The notes under the pieces were generated by a model, which saw only the letters and a list, made by a program, of their open reading frames with translations, was not told the DNA's origin and did not search any database. A stretch of DNA of 63,351 bases. It comes from a virus. Shown piece after piece: positions 5,278-30,852 of this stretch. The stretch lies in IMG/VR virus record IMGVR_UViG_3300045988_110668; one strand, 5' to 3'. Each line of letters opens with the position of its first letter. The stretch's first letter is position 1. Made by a program: the position numbers and the translations under genes.

Positions 5278-5460
5278 TATGTTTGCGGCGTTCAACATAT
5301 TTAAATCGACTGTGCAGGCGGAGCTTGCATTCTTATGCAGGCATTTTTTATGCTTGTATTTAAAATATTGAGGTATATTGTACCCCCGTGTGGAACTATA
5401 ATGGAACCACAGCATAGTCGATATGTGTTGAACAGCGGGAAAGGCAATATACCTTTTTTA
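5278..5460 (+). promoter_or_regulatory. Promoter plus structured leader with interleaved P1 helix and intrinsic terminator (leader copy 1)
   Basis: Elements in order: TATGTTTG 5278-5285; P1 strands 5290-5311 / 5416-5433; box GCAGGCATTTTTTATGCTTGTA 5337-5358; terminator stem 5372-5380 / 5445-5453; T6. Confidence 0.7.
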
Positions 5461-5517
5461 TTTATTGTTATGTTCAACAATATCGACAATCATCATCAAA
5501 CAAATAATAGTAGTTTG

Positions 5518-6258
5518 ATGGCGACGTTAATCCACGACACGGATAGAATGAGTTCGCTTGAAATAGCTGAACTTACAGGCAAAAGACATGATGCTATCTT
5601 GCGAGACATCAGGAACTTACTAAAACAAGGAGTATCACACCACAATTTTGTGGAGACATCCTACAAGCAACCACAGCCAAGAGGAGGATATAAAGAACTC
5701 CCCTGCTTCGAACTCACCAAGAAAGGATGCCTGATCCTCGCCTCCGGCTACGACGCAGTACTCCGTGAGAAGATTATTGATCGCTGGGAACAACTCGAAC
5801 TAGAGAAGCGCAAACCTCAAACTCCCCAAACCTACCTCGAAGCCCTGAAAGCCCTCGTATCATCGGAAGAGGAAAAGCAACGGCTGGCACAGGAGAAGAA
5901 GCAACTAGAACAGCAAAACGCCAAACTCCAGCCAAAAGCAGCCTTTGCCGACGCAGCCTTCGCCACCGACGACAAGGTAGACATAGGAATGTCCGCCAAG
6001 ATCCTAAAGCTCGGATTCGGGCGAAATACCCTATTCGACAAGCTAAGGAAAGCGGGCGTATTCTTCGCCAACCGCAACGAACCCAAACAGAGGTTTATTG
6101 ATGCCGGATACTTCGAGATGAAGGAGAAATTCATCGAGCGAAACAATCATCCGGGATTTGTCGTAACCAAAGTGCTAGTTACCCAAAAGGGATTGGCTTA
6201 TCTGAACCACCTGTTTGGAGGAAAACCTTCTGACGGAAAGCTAGCCAAGATAGTATAA
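5518..6258 (+). CDS. Antirepressor-type protein (Rha-like N-terminus plus KilAC/ANT-like C-terminus)
   Basis: Start chosen at MATLIHDTDRMSSLEIAELTGKRHDAILRDIRNL (Rha-like). C-terminus reads KAAFADAAF...DIGMSAKILKLG...LFDKLRKAGV...GYFE (KilAC-like). The upstream 61 codons of the track ORF overlap the leader RNA. Confidence 0.75.
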   Translation: MATLIHDTDRMSSLEIAELTGKRHDAILRDIRNLLKQGVSHHNFVETSYKQPQPRGGYKELPCFELTKKGCLILASGYDAVLREKIIDRWEQLELEKRKPQTPQTYLEALKALVSSEEEKQRLAQEKKQLEQQNAKLQPKAAFADAAFATDDKVDIGMSAKILKLGFGRNTLFDKLRKAGVFFANRNEPKQRFIDAGYFEMKEKFIERNNHPGFVVTKVLVTQKGLAYLNHLFGGKPSDGKLAKIV

Positions 6259-6603: not shown

Positions 6604-7320
6604 TCACATTGCCAACAGATTGATGATACCCTGTCTGCCAATTCCGGTAATCTTTCTATGGTAGATAATATGACCGTTGTCAGCAACCTCTTGCTTTATA
6701 TCAAACCAACCAAGCGTAGAGTATTTGGTGTATGGAACCCACGTCTGATTAACTTTGTATTGTACGCCAAGTTCTTTTAAACGGTTATTGAGTTCAATTG
6801 CCGATTTAAGCCCTAGCTCTTTCGCAACCTCCGTACATGTATAGGTCTTATTGACATGAGTAAGCACAGCTACCTGTTTCTCCGCTTCAATGCGTGCCGA
6901 CCGTTCCTCTTTTAGCTTAGTGAGAAGTTCAATACCGAAATCCGGATTATTCAATATCTGGTCAATAATATTGTCGGTAGCATAGATGCCATGTTTGCGG
7001 ATTGAAGGTAGCACTTCACTAGTTATCCATTTACGAAACGGTTTTACCTTTTGAGAAGAACTTTGAAGGATTACATCGTAAAAACCTGATTCAGTAACAA
7101 AATTAGCTTTTGTATTTCCGATACTACCCTTTGTATAATTTAGGGCGTGTAAATCAAGCAATTGTACATCCTCGCTATCTAACCTACTCTTCACAGTTGT
7201 TGGATTTTGTAACTCCAGCACTTTGCAAATATCTGCCAAGCAGAATAATGGTTCTTCACTTGTTCCGGCTACACGCACTTCACCGAAAGCTTCATTTTTG
7301 AAAATCTGAATATCATTCAT
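6604..7320 (-). CDS. Bro-N plus KilAC-type antirepressor
   Basis: Start at MNDIQIFKNEAFGEVRVAGTSEEPLFCLADICKVLEL (Bro-N). The 31 upstream track codons overlap a leader terminator. Confidence 0.75.
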   Translation of the reverse strand: MNDIQIFKNEAFGEVRVAGTSEEPLFCLADICKVLELQNPTTVKSRLDSEDVQLLDLHALNYTKGSIGNTKANFVTESGFYDVILQSSSQKVKPFRKWITSEVLPSIRKHGIYATDNIIDQILNNPDFGIELLTKLKEERSARIEAEKQVAVLTHVNKTYTCTEVAKELGLKSAIELNNRLKELGVQYKVNQTWVPYTKYSTLGWFDIKQEVADNGHIIYHRKITGIGRQGIINLLAM

Positions 7321-7358: not shown

Positions 7359-7475
7359 AAAAAAACAGCACCGAACGCTTGAGGATCTTTCGGCACTGTT
7401 TATATATTCCCAACTCTATGGAAATACTTAATATCTTATATGCGCTTCCCCAAGCTGTATCGCACTACAAATATA
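7359..7475 (-). promoter_or_regulatory. Promoter (TATATTTG, 7475-7468) plus a leader containing an intrinsic terminator
   Basis: Minus strand: ACAGTGCCGAA-N13-TTCGGTGCTGT (two G-U pairs) followed by T7, ~40 nt upstream of the ATG at 7320. Confidence 0.6.
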
Positions 7476-11987: not shown

Positions 11988-12740
11988 TTACTTTAATTTT
12001 AAATTTTTGAACATCGATTTCACCTTATTGCCATGCATGTCGGCTTCCTTTTCTTCAAGTGAAGATTCTTTCCGATTCTCCGGCTTGAAAGATGCAAGTG
12101 ACATTGCTTTTGATATAATTCTTTGTATCTTCTGTTGCTTGGATGCGGACATTCCTGAACACATTTCAGATATTTCGAAATTTAATTCTTCATAAGCTTT
12201 TTCAGTATCTTCTATAGATTTTAACCCCAAATATTCAGTTTTCCCATTGCAACCGATAGAGACTACTGATATCTCATAAAGCTTTACCTCTTTCACAATG
12301 AAAGCGTCTTTTTCCGCATCGTATTCGCAATTTTCCCACACATATTGATAACCTATAGAGAACTGGTTTAAAGTTCCAGATTCGAGCTGTTTTATTGCCT
12401 GTTCTCCTCTCAGTACTTCATCTATTATTGCTTCAAAATAAAGCCCCTTTTCATCTTCGTTCAATACTGTAATCCGACCTATAGGTTCATTCATGTTATG
12501 CATCCACAACATGATTATCTTGTCATTTGCAGAACTCTCTGGACCTCGATCTTGGATACTCTTCGAGAAACAACCCTTAACCAATATATCTCCGGCTTTA
12601 TCTTTATTCCCAAAGACCGCAGCATAACCGCTAATAGTACGGCTTTCGTTGTCGTAATTTACTTCTTTAGCATAAATGGAGAATGTCTTATACTGCATCC
12701 CCATTCTTCCGCTATATTTATTAGTTTTATCCATTTTCAA
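11988..12740 (-). CDS. Prohead protease (HK97 / S78-like)
   Basis: 250-aa ORF between the portal and capsid genes. N-terminal region ISGYAAVFGNKDKAGDILVKGCFSKSI resembles prohead proteases. Confidence 0.65.
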   Translation of the reverse strand: MKMDKTNKYSGRMGMQYKTFSIYAKEVNYDNESRTISGYAAVFGNKDKAGDILVKGCFSKSIQDRGPESSANDKIIMLWMHNMNEPIGRITVLNEDEKGLYFEAIIDEVLRGEQAIKQLESGTLNQFSIGYQYVWENCEYDAEKDAFIVKEVKLYEISVVSIGCNGKTEYLGLKSIEDTEKAYEELNFEISEMCSGMSASKQQKIQRIISKAMSLASFKPENRKESSLEEKEADMHGNKVKSMFKNLKLK

Positions 12741-14040
12741 TAGAGTTATTAGTTTTTAATTCACCTTTTGGATTATCAGGATCAATATCTATAAACTTTG
12801 CTAGCTCATTTCTGGATTCATCAAGAGTTATTTGACCTTTTTCAACTAACTGAATTAAAGAAGAAGCCATTTTCTGAAATGCAGAAGAAGATGATGATTT
12901 ATCCTTTTGAAGGCAGTCTACATGGGTATAATCCAGCTTTATAAAAACACCCTTAGGGCAAATAGCGTCCGTTAAAGCTTCTGCAACTTTTTCAGAATCA
13001 GGAATAATAAGACCTTGATAAGCTGATTTTTCAGCTATGCTTTTATTGTCATATTTAGATTCATCAAATAAGCTATAATCAACTCCTACCGCATTGCATA
13101 TCTTTCTGCTACATCGTTCATCCTCTTCATGAAGTTTAAGCTGGGAGGAATCATAATTCAAAGGAATCCAACCAAGTTTTATCTTTGATGTCAGAATTGG
13201 GAATTTATTGAGAATGCCATATTTTTCTTTTAGTTTAGATTCCAATATTTCTTTTTCCTCTGGTGTCATAACTTGATTACCCATCTTATCGGTATAATCA
13301 GAATAAATAATACCTTTGGGACCGCCATTTACAATTAATTGATAACTGGCTGTCATCGCTGCAATCCAGTTATTAACCGGCATAGAAAGGGAGTCTGTAA
13401 CAGAAGAGAATTCTATGTCTCGATTGGAACCATTAACATTTGCAGAACTATCGTAAATTACAAAGTAGTCTTCGTCTGATAATTCTTCCCGCAAACCATC
13501 CCACTCCAAGTATACGCTAGAAACAATATCCTTTATATCATACTGGCGAAATAGTTTCCCAGAAGAAACCATGTGAAATATCTGTGCAGGTATGATATAC
13601 ATTGCGAGTGGCAATGATTTTTTTGCTGCTCTTACAGTGAAAATGGGACAATATCCGAAAAGTTTAAGAGACATCTCAATCTCTTTTAAAAAACCAACCC
13701 TTGTTTGAAGTGGATTAGGACGTGACAACAACTCTCTAATGTCGTTATATCCCTCTTTTTCATTACCTTCCTTATCTGTGACATATATTTTCCCATTCGC
13801 AAAAAGAGAACCTATTTTATTTACAACAGTAGAAAACGGGGTACATACAAGAAGAGAATCTGCTTTATCCCTATCCAATGTTAGATCATAATCATTTTTA
13901 ATTTTACCAGATGGCGAGAAGAAATTGGAAAGATACCAGAAATTCCCATTAGAATCCTTTTCAATAGCCTTTACTGTCTCTCTCATGGAGGGAACAGATA
14001 TATTAATCCTTTTTTGAAACCAATTTCCTAATTTAGACAT
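12727..14040 (-). CDS. Portal protein
   Basis: ~437-aa ORF upstream of the protease. Start chosen at MSKLGNWFQKRI (ATG 14040). Confidence 0.65.
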   Translation of the reverse strand: MSKLGNWFQKRINISVPSMRETVKAIEKDSNGNFWYLSNFFSPSGKIKNDYDLTLDRDKADSLLVCTPFSTVVNKIGSLFANGKIYVTDKEGNEKEGYNDIRELLSRPNPLQTRVGFLKEIEMSLKLFGYCPIFTVRAAKKSLPLAMYIIPAQIFHMVSSGKLFRQYDIKDIVSSVYLEWDGLREELSDEDYFVIYDSSANVNGSNRDIEFSSVTDSLSMPVNNWIAAMTASYQLIVNGGPKGIIYSDYTDKMGNQVMTPEEKEILESKLKEKYGILNKFPILTSKIKLGWIPLNYDSSQLKLHEEDERCSRKICNAVGVDYSLFDESKYDNKSIAEKSAYQGLIIPDSEKVAEALTDAICPKGVFIKLDYTHVDCLQKDKSSSSSAFQKMASSLIQLVEKGQITLDESRNELAKFIDIDPDNPKGELKTNNSIENG

Positions 14041-14267
14041 AAAAAGAATGATTATCTGATTTGAGATAACCATTCCCTACGAAATGAAGAGGTCTTTACG
14101 GACAAAAACACTAACGAAAAAATCCGATAGCATAAAAACGTATAGGTTCCGTGCGTCTTCACACGAAGGGATTGGTAATCCTCACCGCAAATATATATAT
14201 TATTTCTATTTAGTCCAAATAAAAATAGATAATTATTTTATGATGAAATAGACATGTTTATATAAAC

Positions 14268-14292
14268 AGAAAAAGCAGCTTTAAAAGCTACT
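14268..14292 (-). terminator. Rho-independent terminator ending antirepressor cassette 2
   Basis: Minus strand: AGTAGCTTT-T-AAAGCTGCT followed by TTTTTC. Confidence 0.6.
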
Positions 14293-14304
14293 CTTTCTTT
14301 TCGA

Positions 14305-14343
14305 TGGCGTCAACTAATGTGCCGGAACCGATACCCCTGACAC
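14305..14343 (-). repeat. Conserved motif GTGTCAGGGG..CCGGCACATTAGTTGACGCCA (copy 2 of 3)
   Basis: Matches 6523-6563. Confidence 0.8.
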
Positions 14344-14347
14344 TGGT

Positions 14348-14503
14348 TTATTTCGATTTTTCAATCTTCATTTTTATTATCCTAGGAGAAGATAAATGCT
14401 TCGTGTTCAACTCCTTTTCCATTTCAGACATTCTTTCTTTCAGTTTTAGATACTCGTTTGTCAAAGTAATAACTCTTTGTAGCAAGACTTCGTACATATC
14501 CAT
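14348..14503 (-). CDS. Small coiled-coil protein (51 aa), paralog of 6363..6518
   Basis: Internal Met of track ORF 14348..14617. It is preceded by the same GAATCACAC x2 spacer as its paralog. Confidence 0.65.
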   Translation of the reverse strand: MDMYEVLLQRVITLTNEYLKLKERMSEMEKELNTKHLSSPRIIKMKIEKSK

Positions 14504-14617
14504 AGCGACATATTTTATGGTGTGATTCGTGTGATTATTCGATATAATTGTGTGTACTCCCTGTGTATTGATAAATAGTACACAGGGATGATGAAAATGT
14601 GCTGTCAGCTTATACAA

Positions 14618-15448
14618 TCAAGACAATTTTGCAAGTTGGAACCCTAATAGCCCCAATAGTTCTATAAATTTATCCTCATACCATAAAGGTTGAGTGCTTT
14701 TAGGATTGTTGGGATTGACTTGATTTTCACCGTACAAAAGACCTGATTCAGTTATGGATTTGAAAGGCTTGTCTTTACCATGTGACGATTTTCTTTTCAT
14801 CTCACATAAGAATCCCTTTTGAATTGCTCTTTGATTAAACGCTTGTGCACTGATAGATAATCCTTTTTCTTTGAGCAATTCAGTGGCGGACTTTACTATC
14901 CCTTTGCTTGGGGTATAATCGGGTGTAGGTAATCCGAGAGGAGTGGCTACTTTCCCAAGCAATGAAAGTTTAGAAGAATCATTAAGATTAAGCAGTTCAC
15001 TTACACCCTTTACCCATTCAAGACCAACACGGACTTTTGTTGTTAAGGATGGCTCACGCTTAGATTTGTTCTGGTCTTCGATTGTTTTCTGGGCAGTGTG
15101 GTGGAATACTTGTCTGTACACCTCAAACACAGGTCTTACTTTGCGGGCGATGAAGAACTCCATACAAGAAACGGTTAGGTAGTAGTTCACTTTGTTGTTA
15201 CCTCCCCAACTTGCTTCATCTTGCTTGCCATTTTGGGCAAGCGTTTTGTAATCAACTCCTTCAATGAATTGCTCGTTTGATGTCAAAGCTCTAACAGCCT
15301 TTCCCTTTTCAGAATAGACCAACGGCCACACTTCATCAAGGTTAATTGGGAACTCGTTATCAGATTGGGATAACTTTAATACAACGTTGAAGTACGCTTT
15401 GATTTCGCTTTCGCTACTTTCCTTTGATAGAATAATTTCTTTTGCCAT
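14618..15448 (-). CDS. Antirepressor-like DNA-binding protein (276 aa)
   Basis: It occupies the same cassette position as the Rha/KilAC gene. The N-terminus FPINLDEVWPLVYSEKGKAVRAL..FIEGVDY resembles phage antirepressor N-domains; this family call is from memory only. Confidence 0.5.
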   Translation of the reverse strand: MAKEIILSKESSESEIKAYFNVVLKLSQSDNEFPINLDEVWPLVYSEKGKAVRALTSNEQFIEGVDYKTLAQNGKQDEASWGGNNKVNYYLTVSCMEFFIARKVRPVFEVYRQVFHHTAQKTIEDQNKSKREPSLTTKVRVGLEWVKGVSELLNLNDSSKLSLLGKVATPLGLPTPDYTPSKGIVKSATELLKEKGLSISAQAFNQRAIQKGFLCEMKRKSSHGKDKPFKSITESGLLYGENQVNPNNPKSTQPLWYEDKFIELLGLLGFQLAKLS

Positions 15449-15469
15449 TTTTGTAACGTTTTATGGCAT

Positions 15470-15660
15470 TGCAGAAAAAAAGACGGTCTGCAATTAACCC
15501 GTCGTTACACATACCTTAGTGGCAGTTGGGAAGCTGTTAACTTTCCTCACAGGTTTGCAGACCGTTGTATTATATATACAGCGTACTTACAAGCATAAAA
15601 AATGCCTGCTATTAGCAGACAACCGTCTGCCACTAAATATGTGTAACGCTGCAAATATAC
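15470..15660 (-). promoter_or_regulatory. Promoter plus structured leader (leader copy 2)
   Basis: Elements: TATATTTG 15659-15652; P1 strands 15647-15627 / 15525-15504 (20 bp); identical 22-nt box 15609-15588; terminator stem 15565-15555 / 15493-15483 (11 bp); T-run. Confidence 0.7.
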
Positions 15661-15812
15661 GCCATTTTTCTATAACGCCAAAGTTTTACATAAAAATTTT
15701 ATCTGATTATTATTGAATGAACATTGCTGAAATGTTCTATTTTTAATATAATTATAAAATCGGTCAGAAAAACACCGAGGGTAATACAAAAAACAATGTC
15801 CTATTTTTAAGA

Positions 15813-17693
15813 TTATATCATTTTTAAAGATTTTACACGAGCACATACACAAGATAGCACATACATACTTTCAAAACTGTTAATGCCGTCATAATCAGAC
15901 ATATTAGCTATTAATGCACTAAATGAATCATCCAATTCTGGAAAACAGATTGTTTTAATAATCGATTTATAAGATTCAATCATGGTTTTCTTGTCTGCTG
16001 TTTCTTCTCTTACCCACAAATTATGATCAACACGCCTTCTATAATCGTCTGCATAATGTTTCATCTCAACAGGTATCTCCATTTGTGCATTCCCGTCTAT
16101 TTTATTAATAAGCTGGTCAACAGGTATTAACGAATCGGAGAACAAGCAATCAATCATGAATATCTTTCCGTCAACAGCACAATAAGAAACCATTATAAAT
16201 AGCCCATTAATATTCGGGTGTATCTCAACAAATATATGGTTATTTTCTCCCATCTCTTCTTTCTTGTAGTACAGGACATCTATTTCACCTCTCATTTCCA
16301 CAGTTCCTGTAAGAGCATCGCAAGCATCATCATAAGAATTCTTTCCTTTCTTCCTATATGTTTTCAGTTGAGACGCAAACTCCGGCCACCTCCTTTCCCA
16401 ATCAGTAGGAAAATAAGTAAGATTTATCACCTCGGAAGATCTGGTAAAGATCCGAACCTCCTTATTTTTTGACTGATGAAACCAGCTTACTTGAGTCCTA
16501 GGATTACCAATTATCCGCATCTGTTTCTCTACATTCCTAGCAAATCCTCTTCCTCCATTATTGCTTTCCATATTCGCCTTGGATATTTGGTCTTTAGTAA
16601 GCATTTTAGCTGTTTCCGGCTCGGTAAATTCCATGTCCTTTTGTGTAAAAAGGACATCAAGAATAAAATTTCCTATCTCCGTATCAATATAATCAATAGA
16701 GCATAAATAATCACTCCCCGTATCTGCTGTATCTGTGTAATTCTTTCTTATTGCCCTATTTGTGATTGGTATAGTATCATAAGTTTTAAATTTACTATAC
16801 ATTAAGCCCTCCATAGGAGTAGGATTCTGCATATATTGAGTTTCAAAGACATAGCTGTTTACTTTTTGCATTCTATGCAGTTCTTCAAGTGTATGCTTAA
16901 ACTCCCATAAGGCTTTCTCTTCCCCATTTTCATAGACTATTACAGGAAGTGACAAAACAGTCCATTCTCCTGGCTCCGTTTCCATTAAATATCCGCAAAG
17001 GTCATGCTCATGAAGCCTTTGCATGATGATTATGATAGGGGTATTCCGTGAGTTTACACGGTTTCTTATTGTTGTTTCAAACCTTTGATTTACTTTTTCC
17101 CTAGGAGTGTCAGATATCGCATCTTCAGGCTTAACCGGATCGTCAATAATCAATGCACCTGCAAATTTAGAAGAAGGTTTTAATTCTTCTAATGCTTCGG
17201 ATAAATCGTTTTTATCATCGACAGCACCGGCTCCAAAACCTGTAACTTGCCCCCCAGCAGCCGTAGCGTACATGCCACCTCCTTCTGTTGTGTACCATTT
17301 CTTTTTTGCATCACTAGTTTTCTTTATGCCTACATAAGGAAATATACACTTGTATTCTTCCGACTTAACTATATCTCTTACTTCCTCCGAATTATCATTA
17401 GCAAGATCATCAGAATAAGACAAATGAAGAAATTTGGCAGATGGATTGATTGCAAGTCCATACGATATGAAATTCTTAACTACTAATTCCGTCTTGGAAT
17501 ACCTCGGAGCTATGTTTATAATCAGTTTCTTTATTTTTCCGTCAATCACATCATCAAGAGCCTGGCATATCTTTACGTGATGGTCGTTTACTACAAATTT
17601 ACGACCAAATCTTGCTTTAAAGAAATACCTCGTATAGTTCAATGTTCCTGACAAGCAAAATGCCCGTATGTAATCATATCCTTCCCCCATCAT
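15813..17693 (-). CDS. terL: Terminase large subunit
   Basis: 626-aa ORF overlapping the stop of the small-terminase gene. It has an ATPase-like N-terminal half (..LIINIAPRYSKTE.., ..ALIIDDPVKPED..) and a nuclease-sized C-terminal half. Confidence 0.8.
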   Translation of the reverse strand: MMGEGYDYIRAFCLSGTLNYTRYFFKARFGRKFVVNDHHVKICQALDDVIDGKIKKLIINIAPRYSKTELVVKNFISYGLAINPSAKFLHLSYSDDLANDNSEEVRDIVKSEEYKCIFPYVGIKKTSDAKKKWYTTEGGGMYATAAGGQVTGFGAGAVDDKNDLSEALEELKPSSKFAGALIIDDPVKPEDAISDTPREKVNQRFETTIRNRVNSRNTPIIIIMQRLHEHDLCGYLMETEPGEWTVLSLPVIVYENGEEKALWEFKHTLEELHRMQKVNSYVFETQYMQNPTPMEGLMYSKFKTYDTIPITNRAIRKNYTDTADTGSDYLCSIDYIDTEIGNFILDVLFTQKDMEFTEPETAKMLTKDQISKANMESNNGGRGFARNVEKQMRIIGNPRTQVSWFHQSKNKEVRIFTRSSEVINLTYFPTDWERRWPEFASQLKTYRKKGKNSYDDACDALTGTVEMRGEIDVLYYKKEEMGENNHIFVEIHPNINGLFIMVSYCAVDGKIFMIDCLFSDSLIPVDQLINKIDGNAQMEIPVEMKHYADDYRRRVDHNLWVREETADKKTMIESYKSIIKTICFPELDDSFSALIANMSDYDGINSFESMYVLSCVCARVKSLKMI

Positions 17694-29133: not shown

Positions 29134-29904
29134 TTATGCGGCATCTTTCCCTAGAAACTTATTCACAAAATAGATTTGTCCTTTTCCCGTAACCTTCGTT
29201 GTAGTAGTAACTAACACCGTCCCATCTGGCTTGGTTATTGTTGTTTGTTTTATTTCAAACAATCCTAATTCCATAGATTTTTGTGTAGGTTGATTATAAT
29301 ATTGTCCTTTCTGACAGAGATAGCCATTATCACGCAGCCATGAGAACAAGCGATTTTGACCGATATTCACACCGTTCTGCTGTAGTATCTTCGCTAATTC
29401 AGCGATCAAACAAGAACGTTGGGAAGTCGAGACCGCATCGGCAAAAAGAACTTTAGGAGCGTCCTGTTGAATTTTACTTTCTACTTCGATAAGGCGCTGC
29501 TCTTTTCGTTTCAGTGTTTCTTGTGCTACAATCAACGCACGTGCCATAATTTCTTCGGGAGTATCATTTTGCTGGGTTGTAATATAGCCGCCATGTTTGC
29601 GGATAGATGGAAGAACTTCGCCACATACCCAATCTTGGAAAGGTTCGGCTTGTGGTTTATCCGAACGCATGATTACTTTATATAGATTCTTTTCTGTTAC
29701 AAAATTCATCTGCTGTGCTCTACCCATTGAATCTATGACCCCAAACCGAATGGGGGCATCCTTTATTCTTGATTGTACGGCGTCTACTCTTAACTCAAGC
29801 ACTTTACACACATCTGCCAAGCAGAATAATGGTTCTTCATTCTCATTCATCGCAATTCTTACCTCTCCGAATTGCTCATTCTGAAAGATTTTAATTTTAT
29901 TCAT
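29134..29904 (-). CDS. Bro-N plus KilAC-type antirepressor
   Basis: IFQNEQFGEVRIAMNENEEPLFCLADVCKVLEL (Bro-N) with a C-terminal LFADAVSTSQRSCLIAELAKIL..GYL (KilAC-like) region. Confidence 0.75.
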   Translation of the reverse strand: MNKIKIFQNEQFGEVRIAMNENEEPLFCLADVCKVLELRVDAVQSRIKDAPIRFGVIDSMGRAQQMNFVTEKNLYKVIMRSDKPQAEPFQDWVCGEVLPSIRKHGGYITTQQNDTPEEIMARALIVAQETLKRKEQRLIEVESKIQQDAPKVLFADAVSTSQRSCLIAELAKILQQNGVNIGQNRLFSWLRDNGYLCQKGQYYNQPTQKSMELGLFEIKQTTITKPDGTVLVTTTTKVTGKGQIYFVNKFLGKDAA

Positions 29905-29975
29905 AATATATTGATTTAAATTTTAGACAATAGCGATACAGGCGGAAGTATCTCATTCTGCCATTTAGTTAGAAT

Positions 29976-30212
29976 TTAAATATTTGATAACAGAAACTTT
30001 AAACAATCCTTGTGTGGATCGCCTGAATGATGACTAAAATGGTAATCCTGGAATTGCTGGAATAATCCTTGCGAGAGTATGAAGGCATAAGCTTCATTCT
30101 TGCAATTTTTTTCGATTAGGAACTTTTCATAAGATACAGTTTTCGCACTGCTGGGCGCAAAGTTGGGGTTACTATTATTCGCCTTAACTCTGATTTCGTT
30201 GGTTCTTGGCAT
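29976..30212 (-). CDS. Hypothetical protein (78 aa), first gene after leader copy 3
   Basis: Track ORF. Confidence 0.5.
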   Translation of the reverse strand: MPRTNEIRVKANNSNPNFAPSSAKTVSYEKFLIEKNCKNEAYAFILSQGLFQQFQDYHFSHHSGDPHKDCLKFLLSNI

Positions 30213-30231
30213 TGAACGAAATTTGAGTTGT

Positions 30232-30413
30232 TAAAAACAAGAAAGGCTATCGCCTCCCGTTCCGCCAAGAACCGACACCGTTAGAGATAACGAGCATCCA
30301 ATGGGATTTGATAGCCTTATATCTTTGCAATATTACGCTTACAAACGAACATAAAAATATGCACGTTAATCTCTTTCAGAAGTCTTGTTCTTGGCGTGAA
30401 CACCGCAAAGATA
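30232..30413 (-). promoter_or_regulatory. Promoter plus structured leader (leader copy 3)
   Basis: Elements: TATCTTTG 30413-30406; P1 strands 30401-30387 / 30272-30259 (14 bp); box-like hairpin 30364-30340; terminator stem 30318-30310 / 30251-30243 (9 bp); TTTCTTGTTTTT. Confidence 0.65.
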
Positions 30414-30444
30414 CACTCAAATTTCAAAATACCAAATGAAAATC

Positions 30445-30852
30445 TTATTTTTCTGCTAAGTAACCATTCACAACCTCTATAAACTCCTCCAAAGACCGGC
30501 AGACAACATACTTCGCTCCTATACTATCAAATTCCTTTTGATAGGCTTTTTGGTGATCGCTTTGTCTTCCTGTCTTAGTCTTTAATTCAATTCCCATAAA
30601 AGGATAATACTTGTTAGGGATCAACAGAAGTAAGTCAGGGAAACCGGCACGTACTCCCATCTGTTTAAACTTTGCAGCTTCGATAGCATTCCGTTTACCG
30701 CCATTAGGAGAATGATGCAACCTTAGCCTATATTGAGGATATTCCAAATCGAACCAGCAAACACAAGCTCTTTGCAAATCATCCTCTTCATGTTTTGGCT
30801 TCTTGCGGATATTCTTACCGCAGTACTGGGCTTTCATTTCTTCGAATGTCAT
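30445..30852 (-). CDS. VRR-NUC domain nuclease
   Basis: ..HHSPNGGKRN..GVRAGFPDLLLLIP..MGIELKTKTGRQSDHQK.. Confidence 0.75.
   Translation of the reverse strand: MTFEEMKAQYCGKNIRKKPKHEEDDLQRACVCWFDLEYPQYRLRLHHSPNGGKRNAIEAAKFKQMGVRAGFPDLLLLIPNKYYPFMGIELKTKTGRQSDHQKAYQKEFDSIGAKYVVCRSLEEFIEVVNGYLAEK

Follow-up and report, generated by a model that had tools for sequence, protein, structure and literature searches.

In phage P22 the antirepressor gene ant is repressed at the RNA level by the sar RNA, which pairs at the ribosome binding region, and in phages P1 and P7 the leader of the immI operon (c4-icd-ant) carries the c4 antisense RNA, the details of which are reportedly those described by Citron and Schuster in 1990 and 1992. 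The CI RNA of phage P4 pairs with the segment seqA upstream and the segment seqC downstream (PMC4825925). In Salmonella, Gifsy-1 IsrK is both a small RNA and the leader of isrK-orf45-anrP, with its own Rho-independent terminator; read-through leads into a small open reading frame (ORF) and then into the antirepressor gene anrP, and a segment of the leader base-pairs with the region of the small ORF, which gives a translationally silent fold and an alternative, active fold (PMC4825925). Here we describe a family of leader RNAs that precede antirepressor-type genes in gut viruses, with the emphasis on one member ("copy 3" of three) encoded by the minus strand of the IMG/VR virus record IMGVR_UViG_3300045988_110668; the entire record (63,351 nucleotides) was analyzed and is termed "the window".

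Copy 3 shares with IsrK the order of a promoter-proximal RNA, a terminator, a small ORF (78 aa), and an antirepressor-type gene (Bro-N/KilAC). Its distinguishing feature is a strand with two complements, the 5' end of the same RNA and the start codon of the small ORF, and this complementarity is maintained by covariation. With slightly better than even confidence, we interpret copy 3 as a cis-acting attenuator leader with alternative folds that would combine premature termination with masking of the start site.

Results

A strand of the copy 3 leader is complementary to the RNA 5' end and to the start codon

The predicted transcript of copy 3 has a leader of ~170 nt that runs on the minus strand from G30401 to a U-tract at ~30233 (Table 1). 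When we read the minus strand of 29900-30700, every element listed in the original prediction was found in its place. The RNA (172 nt) has a minimum free energy (MFE) of -63.9 kcal/mol, as compared with -38.2 +/- 3.7 kcal/mol for 200 shuffles (z = -6.9); the z-scores of copies 1 and 2 are -5.7 and -5.2, respectively. The elements follow one another in an order that is common to copy 3 and the family: a -7 promoter box, the 5' strand of a helix (P1), the box hairpin, the 5' strand of a terminator stem (T), CCC, the 3' strand of P1, GGG, the 3' strand of T, the U-tract, and a segment (D) at the start codon.

Helix P1 contains 14 bp with one bulged A, and ACGGGAGG is located directly 3' of it. 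In copies 1-3 and in the family, the complements of the P1 3' strand are the RNA 5' end and D at the downstream start, so we named this strand the anti-start-site strand. In copy 3 the duplex between this strand and D has an energy of -24.5 kcal/mol, and in silico deletion of the first 30 nt leads to pairing of the P1 3' strand with D in copies 1 and 3. The original prediction had described, in each copy, a 5'-3' closing helix and a terminator with its 5' strand inside that helix; this description was correct, and both helices covary across the relatives. It did not mention that the P1 3' strand has a conserved complementarity to the start codon region, a feature that makes it as likely that the mechanism includes control of translation as that it includes termination.

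The terminator stem T contains 9 bp extended by CCC:GGG and is followed by UCUUGUUUUU, that is, a G+C-containing stem with a U-rich tract, as in an intrinsic terminator. The segment 30233..30258 can alternatively form a small hairpin (GGGAGGC-GATA-GCCTTTC), and this small-hairpin version of the terminator is the one flagged by the terminator scan. In the interior of the leader, AGAGAUUAACGUGCAU (30374-30359) and AUGCUCGUUAUCUCU (30297-30283) form a long-range helix (L) of 15 bp. Immediately 5' of the U-rich loop is a segment with two alternative partners, namely the distal strand of L and the 3' half of the box; the local hairpin also shares bases with L, so the hairpin and L are alternative pairings. 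The hairpin that had been described as variable is present and covaries, although its 5' arm also belongs to L.

At the 5' end, TATCTTTGC (30413-30405) fits the Bacteroides -7 promoter consensus, TANNTTTGY (PMC8748976), and a match to this consensus is located 3-4 nt before P1 in every member of the family; from the position of the box, the transcript is predicted to start at approximately the first base of P1 (G30401). The original prediction had placed TATCTTTG correctly but had not recognized it as a promoter box. A possible -33 element (TTTTG, 30432-30428) is only ~14 nt from the -7 box in copy 3; in copy 2, TTTG is found at a spacing of 19 nt.

Table 1. Elements of the copy 3 leader, the genes that follow it, and the two other copies in the window.
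Feature	Position	Strand	Remarks
Bacteroides -7 promoter box TATCTTTG(C)	30406..30413	-	same position in all relatives, including those found via protein homology
P1 5' strand GTTCACGCCAAGAAC	30387..30401	-	at RNA 5' end; resembles start-site segment D; covaries with P1 3' strand in 9 variants
Helix L 5' strand AGAGATTAACGTGCAT	30359..30374	-	MFE fold and compensatory change; its 3' part (a') alternatively pairs with b' to give the box hairpin
Box hairpin ACGTGCATA-TTTT-TATGTTCGT	30345..30366	-	conserved 'AUUUUUUAUG' element, the box of the original prediction
Box as originally delimited GTGCATATTTTTATGTTCGTTTGTA	30364-30340	-	sequence
T 5' strand AAGGCTATC	30310..30318	-	sequence; covaries in subfamily
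UCCC	30303..30306	-	pairs with GGGA (30258-30255), extending T
Helix L 3' strand ATGCTCGTTATCTCT	30297-30283	-	overlaps local hairpin (region 30279..30297)
Local hairpin CGTTA-TCTC-TAACG	30292-30279	-	alternative to helix L
P1 3' strand GTTCTTGGCGGAAC	30259..30272	-	complementary to RNA 5' end and to start-codon region D
T 3' strand GATAGCCTT	30251-30243	-	pairs with AAGGCTATC; preceded by GGGA-GGC
U-tract TCTTGTTTTT	30242-30233	-	directly 3' of T; segment 30233..30258 terminator-like in scan
D GTTCAATGCCAAGAACC	30201..30217	-	start codon (30212-30210) and codons 2-4 of 78-aa ORF; complementary to P1 3' strand
78-aa ORF	29976..30212	-	first gene after copy 3; conserved in relatives
Bro-N + KilAC (ANT) antirepressor-type gene	29134..29904	-	PF02498, 3.9e-18; PF03374, 2.8e-34; PHROG 130 'anti-repressor Ant', 3.2e-87
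Copy 1 (type I)	5278..5487	+	promoter and leader 5278-5460; D = ATGTTCAACAATATCGAC, 5470-5487; before Rha + KilAC gene
Copy 2 (type I)	15443..15659	-	promoter and leader 15659-15475; two-part D, CGTTACA + ATGGCA, 15458-15443; before 276-aa gene

The helices covary across the family

RNAalifold on MAFFT alignments recovered only the helices that are conserved in sequence, that is, the box hairpin and CCCGU:RCGGG (the helix that extends T in the leaders of copies 1 and 2 and their relatives, termed type I; vide infra). Because MAFFT misaligns the variable helices, we used instead a covariance model (R1), duplex energies calculated within each leader ("self") and between different leaders ("cross"), and an anchored mini-alignment (A8). 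In the R1-based alignment of 72 distinct sequences (A5), 93.5% of the cells are paired, 30 of the 36 pairs show compensatory change, and none of 500 shuffles reaches the score, values that lean towards structure because A5 is fitted to the structure of the model; as a control, sliding the partner columns reduced pairing to 34-41%. The comparison of self and cross energies is free of any alignment: the values are -32 and -13.7 kcal/mol for P1 (32 distinct sequences), -15.7 and -7.1 kcal/mol for T (25 distinct sequences), and -19.5 and -12.2 kcal/mol for D (58 leaders). Even in a plain MAFFT alignment, the CCCGU:RCGGG helix has the compensatory variants CCCAU:GUGGG and CCUGU:ACAGG.

The mini-alignment A8 is gap-free and anchored, by our own choice, on an invariant CCAA/TTGG. 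For the pairing of the P1 5' and 3' strands, 84.9% of its cells are paired, and for the pairing of the P1 3' strand with D, 88.1%; in both cases 9 of the 14 pairs are compensatory and 0 of 500 shuffles reach the score. The D bases in this alignment are codons 1-5 of a conserved protein, and in five of nine variants the match to the P1 3' strand extends over more positions for D than for the P1 5' strand. As judged from these sequences, a covarying start-site mask would be a new and well-supported feature of phage regulatory RNA.

The leader helices contain 209 G.U pairs and 18 A.C mismatches; this excess points to RNA on the mRNA strand rather than to DNA palindromes, with the ratio being indicative only because the duplex program itself favors G.U.

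Copy 3 and its relatives form a separate subtype

Copies 1 and 2 contain a local hairpin (P2) and a hairpin with a UAAUG loop (P3). Copy 3 and its relatives lack both, and the long-range helix L replaces them; on this basis we assigned copy 3 to a separate subtype (type II). The original prediction had regarded the box of copy 3 as degenerate; the box is where it was described, but the leader belongs to a distinct subtype with helix L and is not merely a degenerate copy. In near-identical relatives of copy 3 (L135, L139), AGAGAU is changed to AGUGAU together with a change of AUCUCU to AUCACU, which supports L, and L is retained with different sequences in six variants.

The divergent type II relatives were gathered through the downstream Bro-N/KilAC protein, not through the RNA. 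When R1 was applied to 80 loci that encode relatives of this protein, only leaders nearly identical to copy 3 were matched; the divergent type II leaders in these loci were recognized by eye and by pattern. Many of the loci have a type II leader with very different helix sequences upstream of a homologous small ORF. The variants of T include AAGGCTGTC/GACAGCCTT (L309), AAGCTGTTCG/CGGACAGCTT (L270), and others; UCCC:GGGA is replaced by CUCUC:GAGAG (L274) or CUUCCC:GGGAAG (L270); the box hairpin has compensatory variants (UGGAU:AUCCA in L270 and, in L048, a member found with R1, GGGCAU:AUGCCU); and the local hairpin covaries (CAUAG/CUAUG in L269, CAUU/AAUG in L274, CUAC/GUAG in L270 and L316).

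The type II relatives contain nine combinations of P1 and D. Written as the P1 5' strand with its D segment, these are GTTCACGCCAAGAAC or GTTCTCGCCAAGAAC (two bulge variants) with ATGCCAAGAACC; GTCTTCGCCAAAGAC with ATGCCAAAGACCGG; GCAAGTACGCCAAACCTGC with ATGCCAAACCTGATG; GTTTCACAGACCAAGGAAAC with ATGACCAAGGAAATG; GTTTCATGCCAACGAAAC with ATGCCAACGAAATTG; GTTCCCGCCAAGAACA with ATGCCAAGAACAGG; GTTTTCCCGCCAAGAAAAC with ATGCCAAGAAACTTG; and AAAGTTCGCCAAACTTT with ATGCCAAACTTCAAC.

The family precedes antirepressor-type genes in gut viral contigs

An exact search of IMG/VR with the 17-base box of copies 1 and 2 identified at least 117 loci, almost all of which have the same architecture; the box of copy 3 identified 26 additional loci, and R1 recovered members that lack the exact box (L028, L048, L042, L007). 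At least 72 distinct relatives, from gut viral contigs, were aligned. Most members of the set were found by exact-word search, so the conservation of the box among them follows from the search itself. Human-gut viral contigs contain up to three leaders per genome, and leaders that share a genome or contig always differ in their P1/D sequences.

An ORF on the same strand is always located within 10-65 nt of the leader. The downstream ORFs belong to three groups: proteins with an N-terminal Rha, Bro-N, KilA-N, or AntA domain, most with a C-terminal KilAC (ANT) domain (Pfam), for which the PHROGs name is "anti-repressor Ant"; a protein of 263-276 aa that has no Pfam match, as found behind copy 2; and a small ORF of 78-94 aa.

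The family is new relative to Rfam 15 and the literature that we searched, and it is carried by temperate phages of gut Bacteroidales. In Rfam 15, no family matches any of the three copies when the whole window is scanned at the gathering score, and a relaxed scan (E up to 10) around each copy gave chance-level matches only. The literature on Bacteroides or antirepressor RNA motifs contained no description of the family that we could find. The FopS small RNAs concern polysaccharide utilization loci and are unrelated to the leader. In a blastn search of deposited phage genomes (INPHARED set), the leaders of copies 2 and 3 gave zero matches; in an exact-word scan of a genome collection, one true member was found among the matches listed, in a Parabacteroides metagenome-assembled genome (L156), the rest being chance 17-mer matches.

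Pairs of nearby leaders are found in other viral contigs (L084:2252-4356, L028:4827-5549, L048:11874-12342, L042:9302-9955), each pair with differing P1 and start-site sequences; some of these leaders precede small ORFs (88-94 aa) of no known family. The Bro-N/KilAC relatives also occur in other contexts: in L275 and L324 the leader located ~270-160 nt upstream of the Bro-N match is of another kind (TATATTTG, then the hairpin GAGCCATATCC...GGATATGGCTC and a T-run), and in L268 and L342 the Bro-N/KilAC relative is directly behind another gene, so the leader is not obligatory for this protein family.

The window contains three copies

The model R1 was built from three copy-2-type sequences with a hand-checked structure and without copy 3. 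In the window it matches copy 2 (238 bits), copy 1 (45.2 bits, E 1.6e-11), and copy 3 (30234-30413, minus strand; 25.7 bits, E 7.9e-6), with E-values that are rough because the calibration was shortened. Besides these copies, the search of the whole window returned only the antisense of copy 2, so the window contains exactly three copies. That related leaders occupy three sites before antirepressor-type genes, as originally proposed, is thus borne out by the R1 matches and by Pfam and PHROGs. The further proposal that one factor co-regulates the battery of antirepressors did not fare as well: the copies share core motifs but differ in their P1 and start-site sequences. In copy 3 the leader is followed by the 78-aa ORF, which has no Pfam or PHROG match, and then by the Bro-N/KilAC gene.

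The unit of copy 1 is the sole plus-strand unit amid minus-strand genes, so its gene can be transcribed only through the leader, no other promoter being possible. This gene probably starts at the ATG at 5470 (+) rather than at 5518; the in-frame extension of 16-17 codons from 5470 holds D and is uninterrupted in every variant, even in one that carries a 3-nt indel.

The leader and gene of copy 2 form a cassette within the structural module, between a 626-aa ORF and the portal gene (12727-17693, minus strand), so late transcription would need to pass the leader terminator; the 626-aa ORF has no Pfam match and is presumably terminase-like, as judged by its position. In copy-2-type leaders (15443-15470, minus strand, and the class B relatives), a conserved (C)TATAATGCCA after the terminator can pair with the AUGGCA start region, a pairing that would place the outer part of D in a loop.

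The window also encodes a second Bro-N/KilAC gene (6604-7320, minus strand) with a simple leader (7360-7474) in which TATATTTG precedes the hairpin AACAGTGCCGAA...TTCGGTGCTG and a T-run; R1 gives no match to it. This agrees with the simpler leader that had been noted for the Bro-N gene at 7320, and it is unrelated to copies 1-3. The sole curated RNA family found in the window is the DUF2693-FD RNA (Rfam RF02926; 35733-35783, minus strand; 56.5 bits, E 1.5e-10). The window carries portal, capsid, VRR-NUC, and other phage genes and shares 95% identity with Bacteroides phage BKO1-TP3 over a 1.4-kb stretch; it is a temperate Bacteroides phage or prophage.

Discussion

As an attenuator, copy 3 would choose between two sets of pairings. 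In the first (set A), the leader would form a long rod with helix L and with the P1 3' strand paired to the 5' end; in the second (set B), it would instead form the box hairpin, the local hairpin, and a strong terminator in which CCC:GGG extends T and a run of U's comes next. The start codon and first codons (D) are the third possible partner of the P1 3' strand. The downstream gene is predicted to be transcribed only via read-through of the leader terminator, and the terminator would then act as an attenuator. With set B formed, most transcripts would stop, giving a short RNA, and in those that escape the free P1 3' strand would clamp the start site; with the 5' end holding the P1 3' strand, the strong terminator would be disfavored and the start site would be free, that is, the 5' end would be the releasing strand. 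Expression of the 78-aa ORF and the Bro-N/KilAC gene would be set by any agent that governs whether the 5' strand or the conserved core is available; a protein, an RNA, a metabolite, or the speed of elongation are candidates. The leader probably keeps antirepressor-type induction genes off pending a signal.

The energies of the two folding states differ between the subtypes. In type I the gap is no more than ~6 kcal/mol, which fits a switch; type II prefers the rod by 12-25 kcal/mol, so that kinetics or a factor would have to determine the fold. Blocking of the 5' 22 nt gives the T fold in five of seven type II variants.

Several points weigh against the attenuator interpretation. The rod fold of copy 3 itself is favored by ~14 kcal/mol, and it still keeps a 7-bp hairpin and the U-tract. 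P1 and T share no nucleotides, so we infer their mutual exclusion rather than read it from the pairings; the P1 3' strand is contiguous with GGGA-T3', coaxial stacking in a pseudoknot is possible, and with such a pseudoknot termination would be constitutive. Because types I and II have different cores, one sensor shared by both is not apparent. In copy 3 the D duplex (-24.5 kcal/mol) is unexceptional in energy when compared with background matches genome-wide (-26 to -27 kcal/mol), so the case for D rests on its position and covariation; the covariation statistics come in part from an alignment that leans towards the structure (A5) and from one whose anchor we chose (A8). The transcript start, termination, and read-through are all predicted.

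The main rival, which is compatible with cis action, is that the terminated leader of ~170 nt is itself the active product, a trans-acting immunity-type small RNA of the kind represented by phage P1 c4, P4 CI, and Gifsy-1 IsrK. Such an RNA would pair with read-through transcripts of its own cassette, each cassette having its own "address", and either its P1 3' strand would block the start (c4-like repression) or its 5' strand would free it (IsrK-like activation). The layout is that of c4, CI, and IsrK: an antisense segment follows an upstream copy and precedes its target, which is located at the start of a small ORF with an antirepressor gene behind it. The leader has its own promoter and terminator, a 5' end held in a helix suits a stable RNA, and the invariable difference in P1/D between leaders in the same genome or contig is as expected for separate addresses. 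However, at the MFE the antisense strand is locked in P1 (-25 to -37 kcal/mol, as compared with -13 to -30 kcal/mol for the D duplex), the window contains no further targets above background, Rfam gives neither an IsrK match nor a C4 match (RF01695; none near copies 1-3 with the cutoff relaxed to E up to 10), and cis action accounts for the complementarity without extra assumptions; we consider the trans-acting RNA unlikely. Rather more doubtful is a ligand- or protein-sensing switch (riboswitch-like or an RNA-binding-protein attenuator) in which a conserved core (AUUUUUUAUG hairpin, CCCGUG/RCGGG, and, in type I, the UAAUG loop) chooses the fold. Core motifs are indeed common to leaders with completely different helices, the type I states are close in energy, and the family is associated with one functional class of genes; but type II, including copy 3, has no P2, P3, or UAAUG loop and hence no single conserved pocket, the core is not common to all members, its conservation in most of the set stems from the exact-word search, and no known riboswitch model matches.

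It is also conceivable, although very unlikely in our judgment, that the leader is a stable small RNA expressed constitutively for some other role, with P1 and T forming together in the pseudoknot described above and the start complementarity being a leak-proofing device or a by-product. The absence of shared bases, the abutting P1 3' strand and GGGA-T3', the very low fold z-scores (-5 to -7), and the presence of a hairpin and U-tract in both folds of copy 3 are consistent with this; the gene of copy 1, which must be read through the leader, the same-strand ORF at every locus, and the covariation of D within coding sequence, which argues for selection on a link to the downstream gene, are not. 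The least probable explanations, to which we give almost no weight, are that the 5' strand, its inverted copy, and D are DNA-level operators for a DNA-binding protein (e.g., the Bro-N or Rha product) or that a leader peptide starts at the AUG of the box. The segments overlap the transcript start and the start codon, which are typical positions for operators, and the downstream proteins have DNA-binding domains; nevertheless, the tolerance of G.U but not A.C (209 and 18) and the wide variation of the helix sequences before nearly identical proteins disfavor the operator reading, which also leaves the covariation of T, L, and the box hairpin unexplained. The box AUG is present in most members, but the frames that open there are conserved in neither length nor sequence, and in L270 the AUG is replaced by AUAUCC, so leader-peptide attenuation was rejected.

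By function, then, IsrK, c4, and CI are the closest analogues of the leader, not homologues. IsrK is encoded in a different host phylum and has no similarity to copies 1-3 in sequence or by Rfam model. Bacteroidetes largely lack Shine-Dalgarno-led initiation; unlike IsrK, the copy 3 family would mask the start codon itself, a copy at the 5' end would compete for the masking strand, and the 5' strand of the strong terminator is inside the 5'-3' helix. With c4 (in the immI operon) and CI (seqA-seqB-seqC), the leader shares an antisense segment that is complementary to segments upstream and at the start of the first ORF of the same transcript, that is, C4-type double complementarity, as well as short variable segments that carry specificity; with c4 it also shares the antirepressor encoded by the regulated operon of phage P1. 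In contrast, c4 and CI are 70-80 nt, processed by RNase P, and present their antisense bases in loops, whereas the leaders are ~170 nt, predicted to be primary transcripts, and have the antisense strand in a long helix and an intrinsic terminator between the antisense segment and its target. Attenuators and riboswitch platforms likewise have alternative pairings, a stem and U-tract just upstream of an ORF, and a closing helix beside the terminator; in the leader, T and P1 do not compete for the same bases, masking of the start site is added, and neither a known aptamer nor a conserved leader peptide is present. The P22 sar RNA is transcribed from the opposite strand, whereas all of the leader elements are on the mRNA strand, as indicated by the G.U pairs. 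By analogy, the family appears to show the design principle of c4, CI, and IsrK in a different phylum, with an intrinsic terminator incorporated.

The proposed logic of a 5' strand, an anti-start strand, and a start site is testable with reporters, and the natural orthogonal address sequences are potential parts for gene control in Bacteroides. A bolder and rather improbable extension is a modular RNA lock, in which each cassette has a variable, self-matching address and a shared core senses one input, so that several antirepressors are released together; if this is true, the input could be a metabolite of the host, an RNA-binding protein of phage or host, or a change in elongation linked to stress, and one gut signal could tip the prophage, and perhaps co-resident prophages, into induction. 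Were the input a small molecule, the leader would be a new class of riboswitch tied to the lysis-lysogeny decision in Bacteroides. The induction decisions of the temperate phages of gut Bacteroidales are largely unknown and their regulatory RNAs almost unexplored; the leader family provides a widespread, easily mutated element located before the genes that are most likely to trigger induction.

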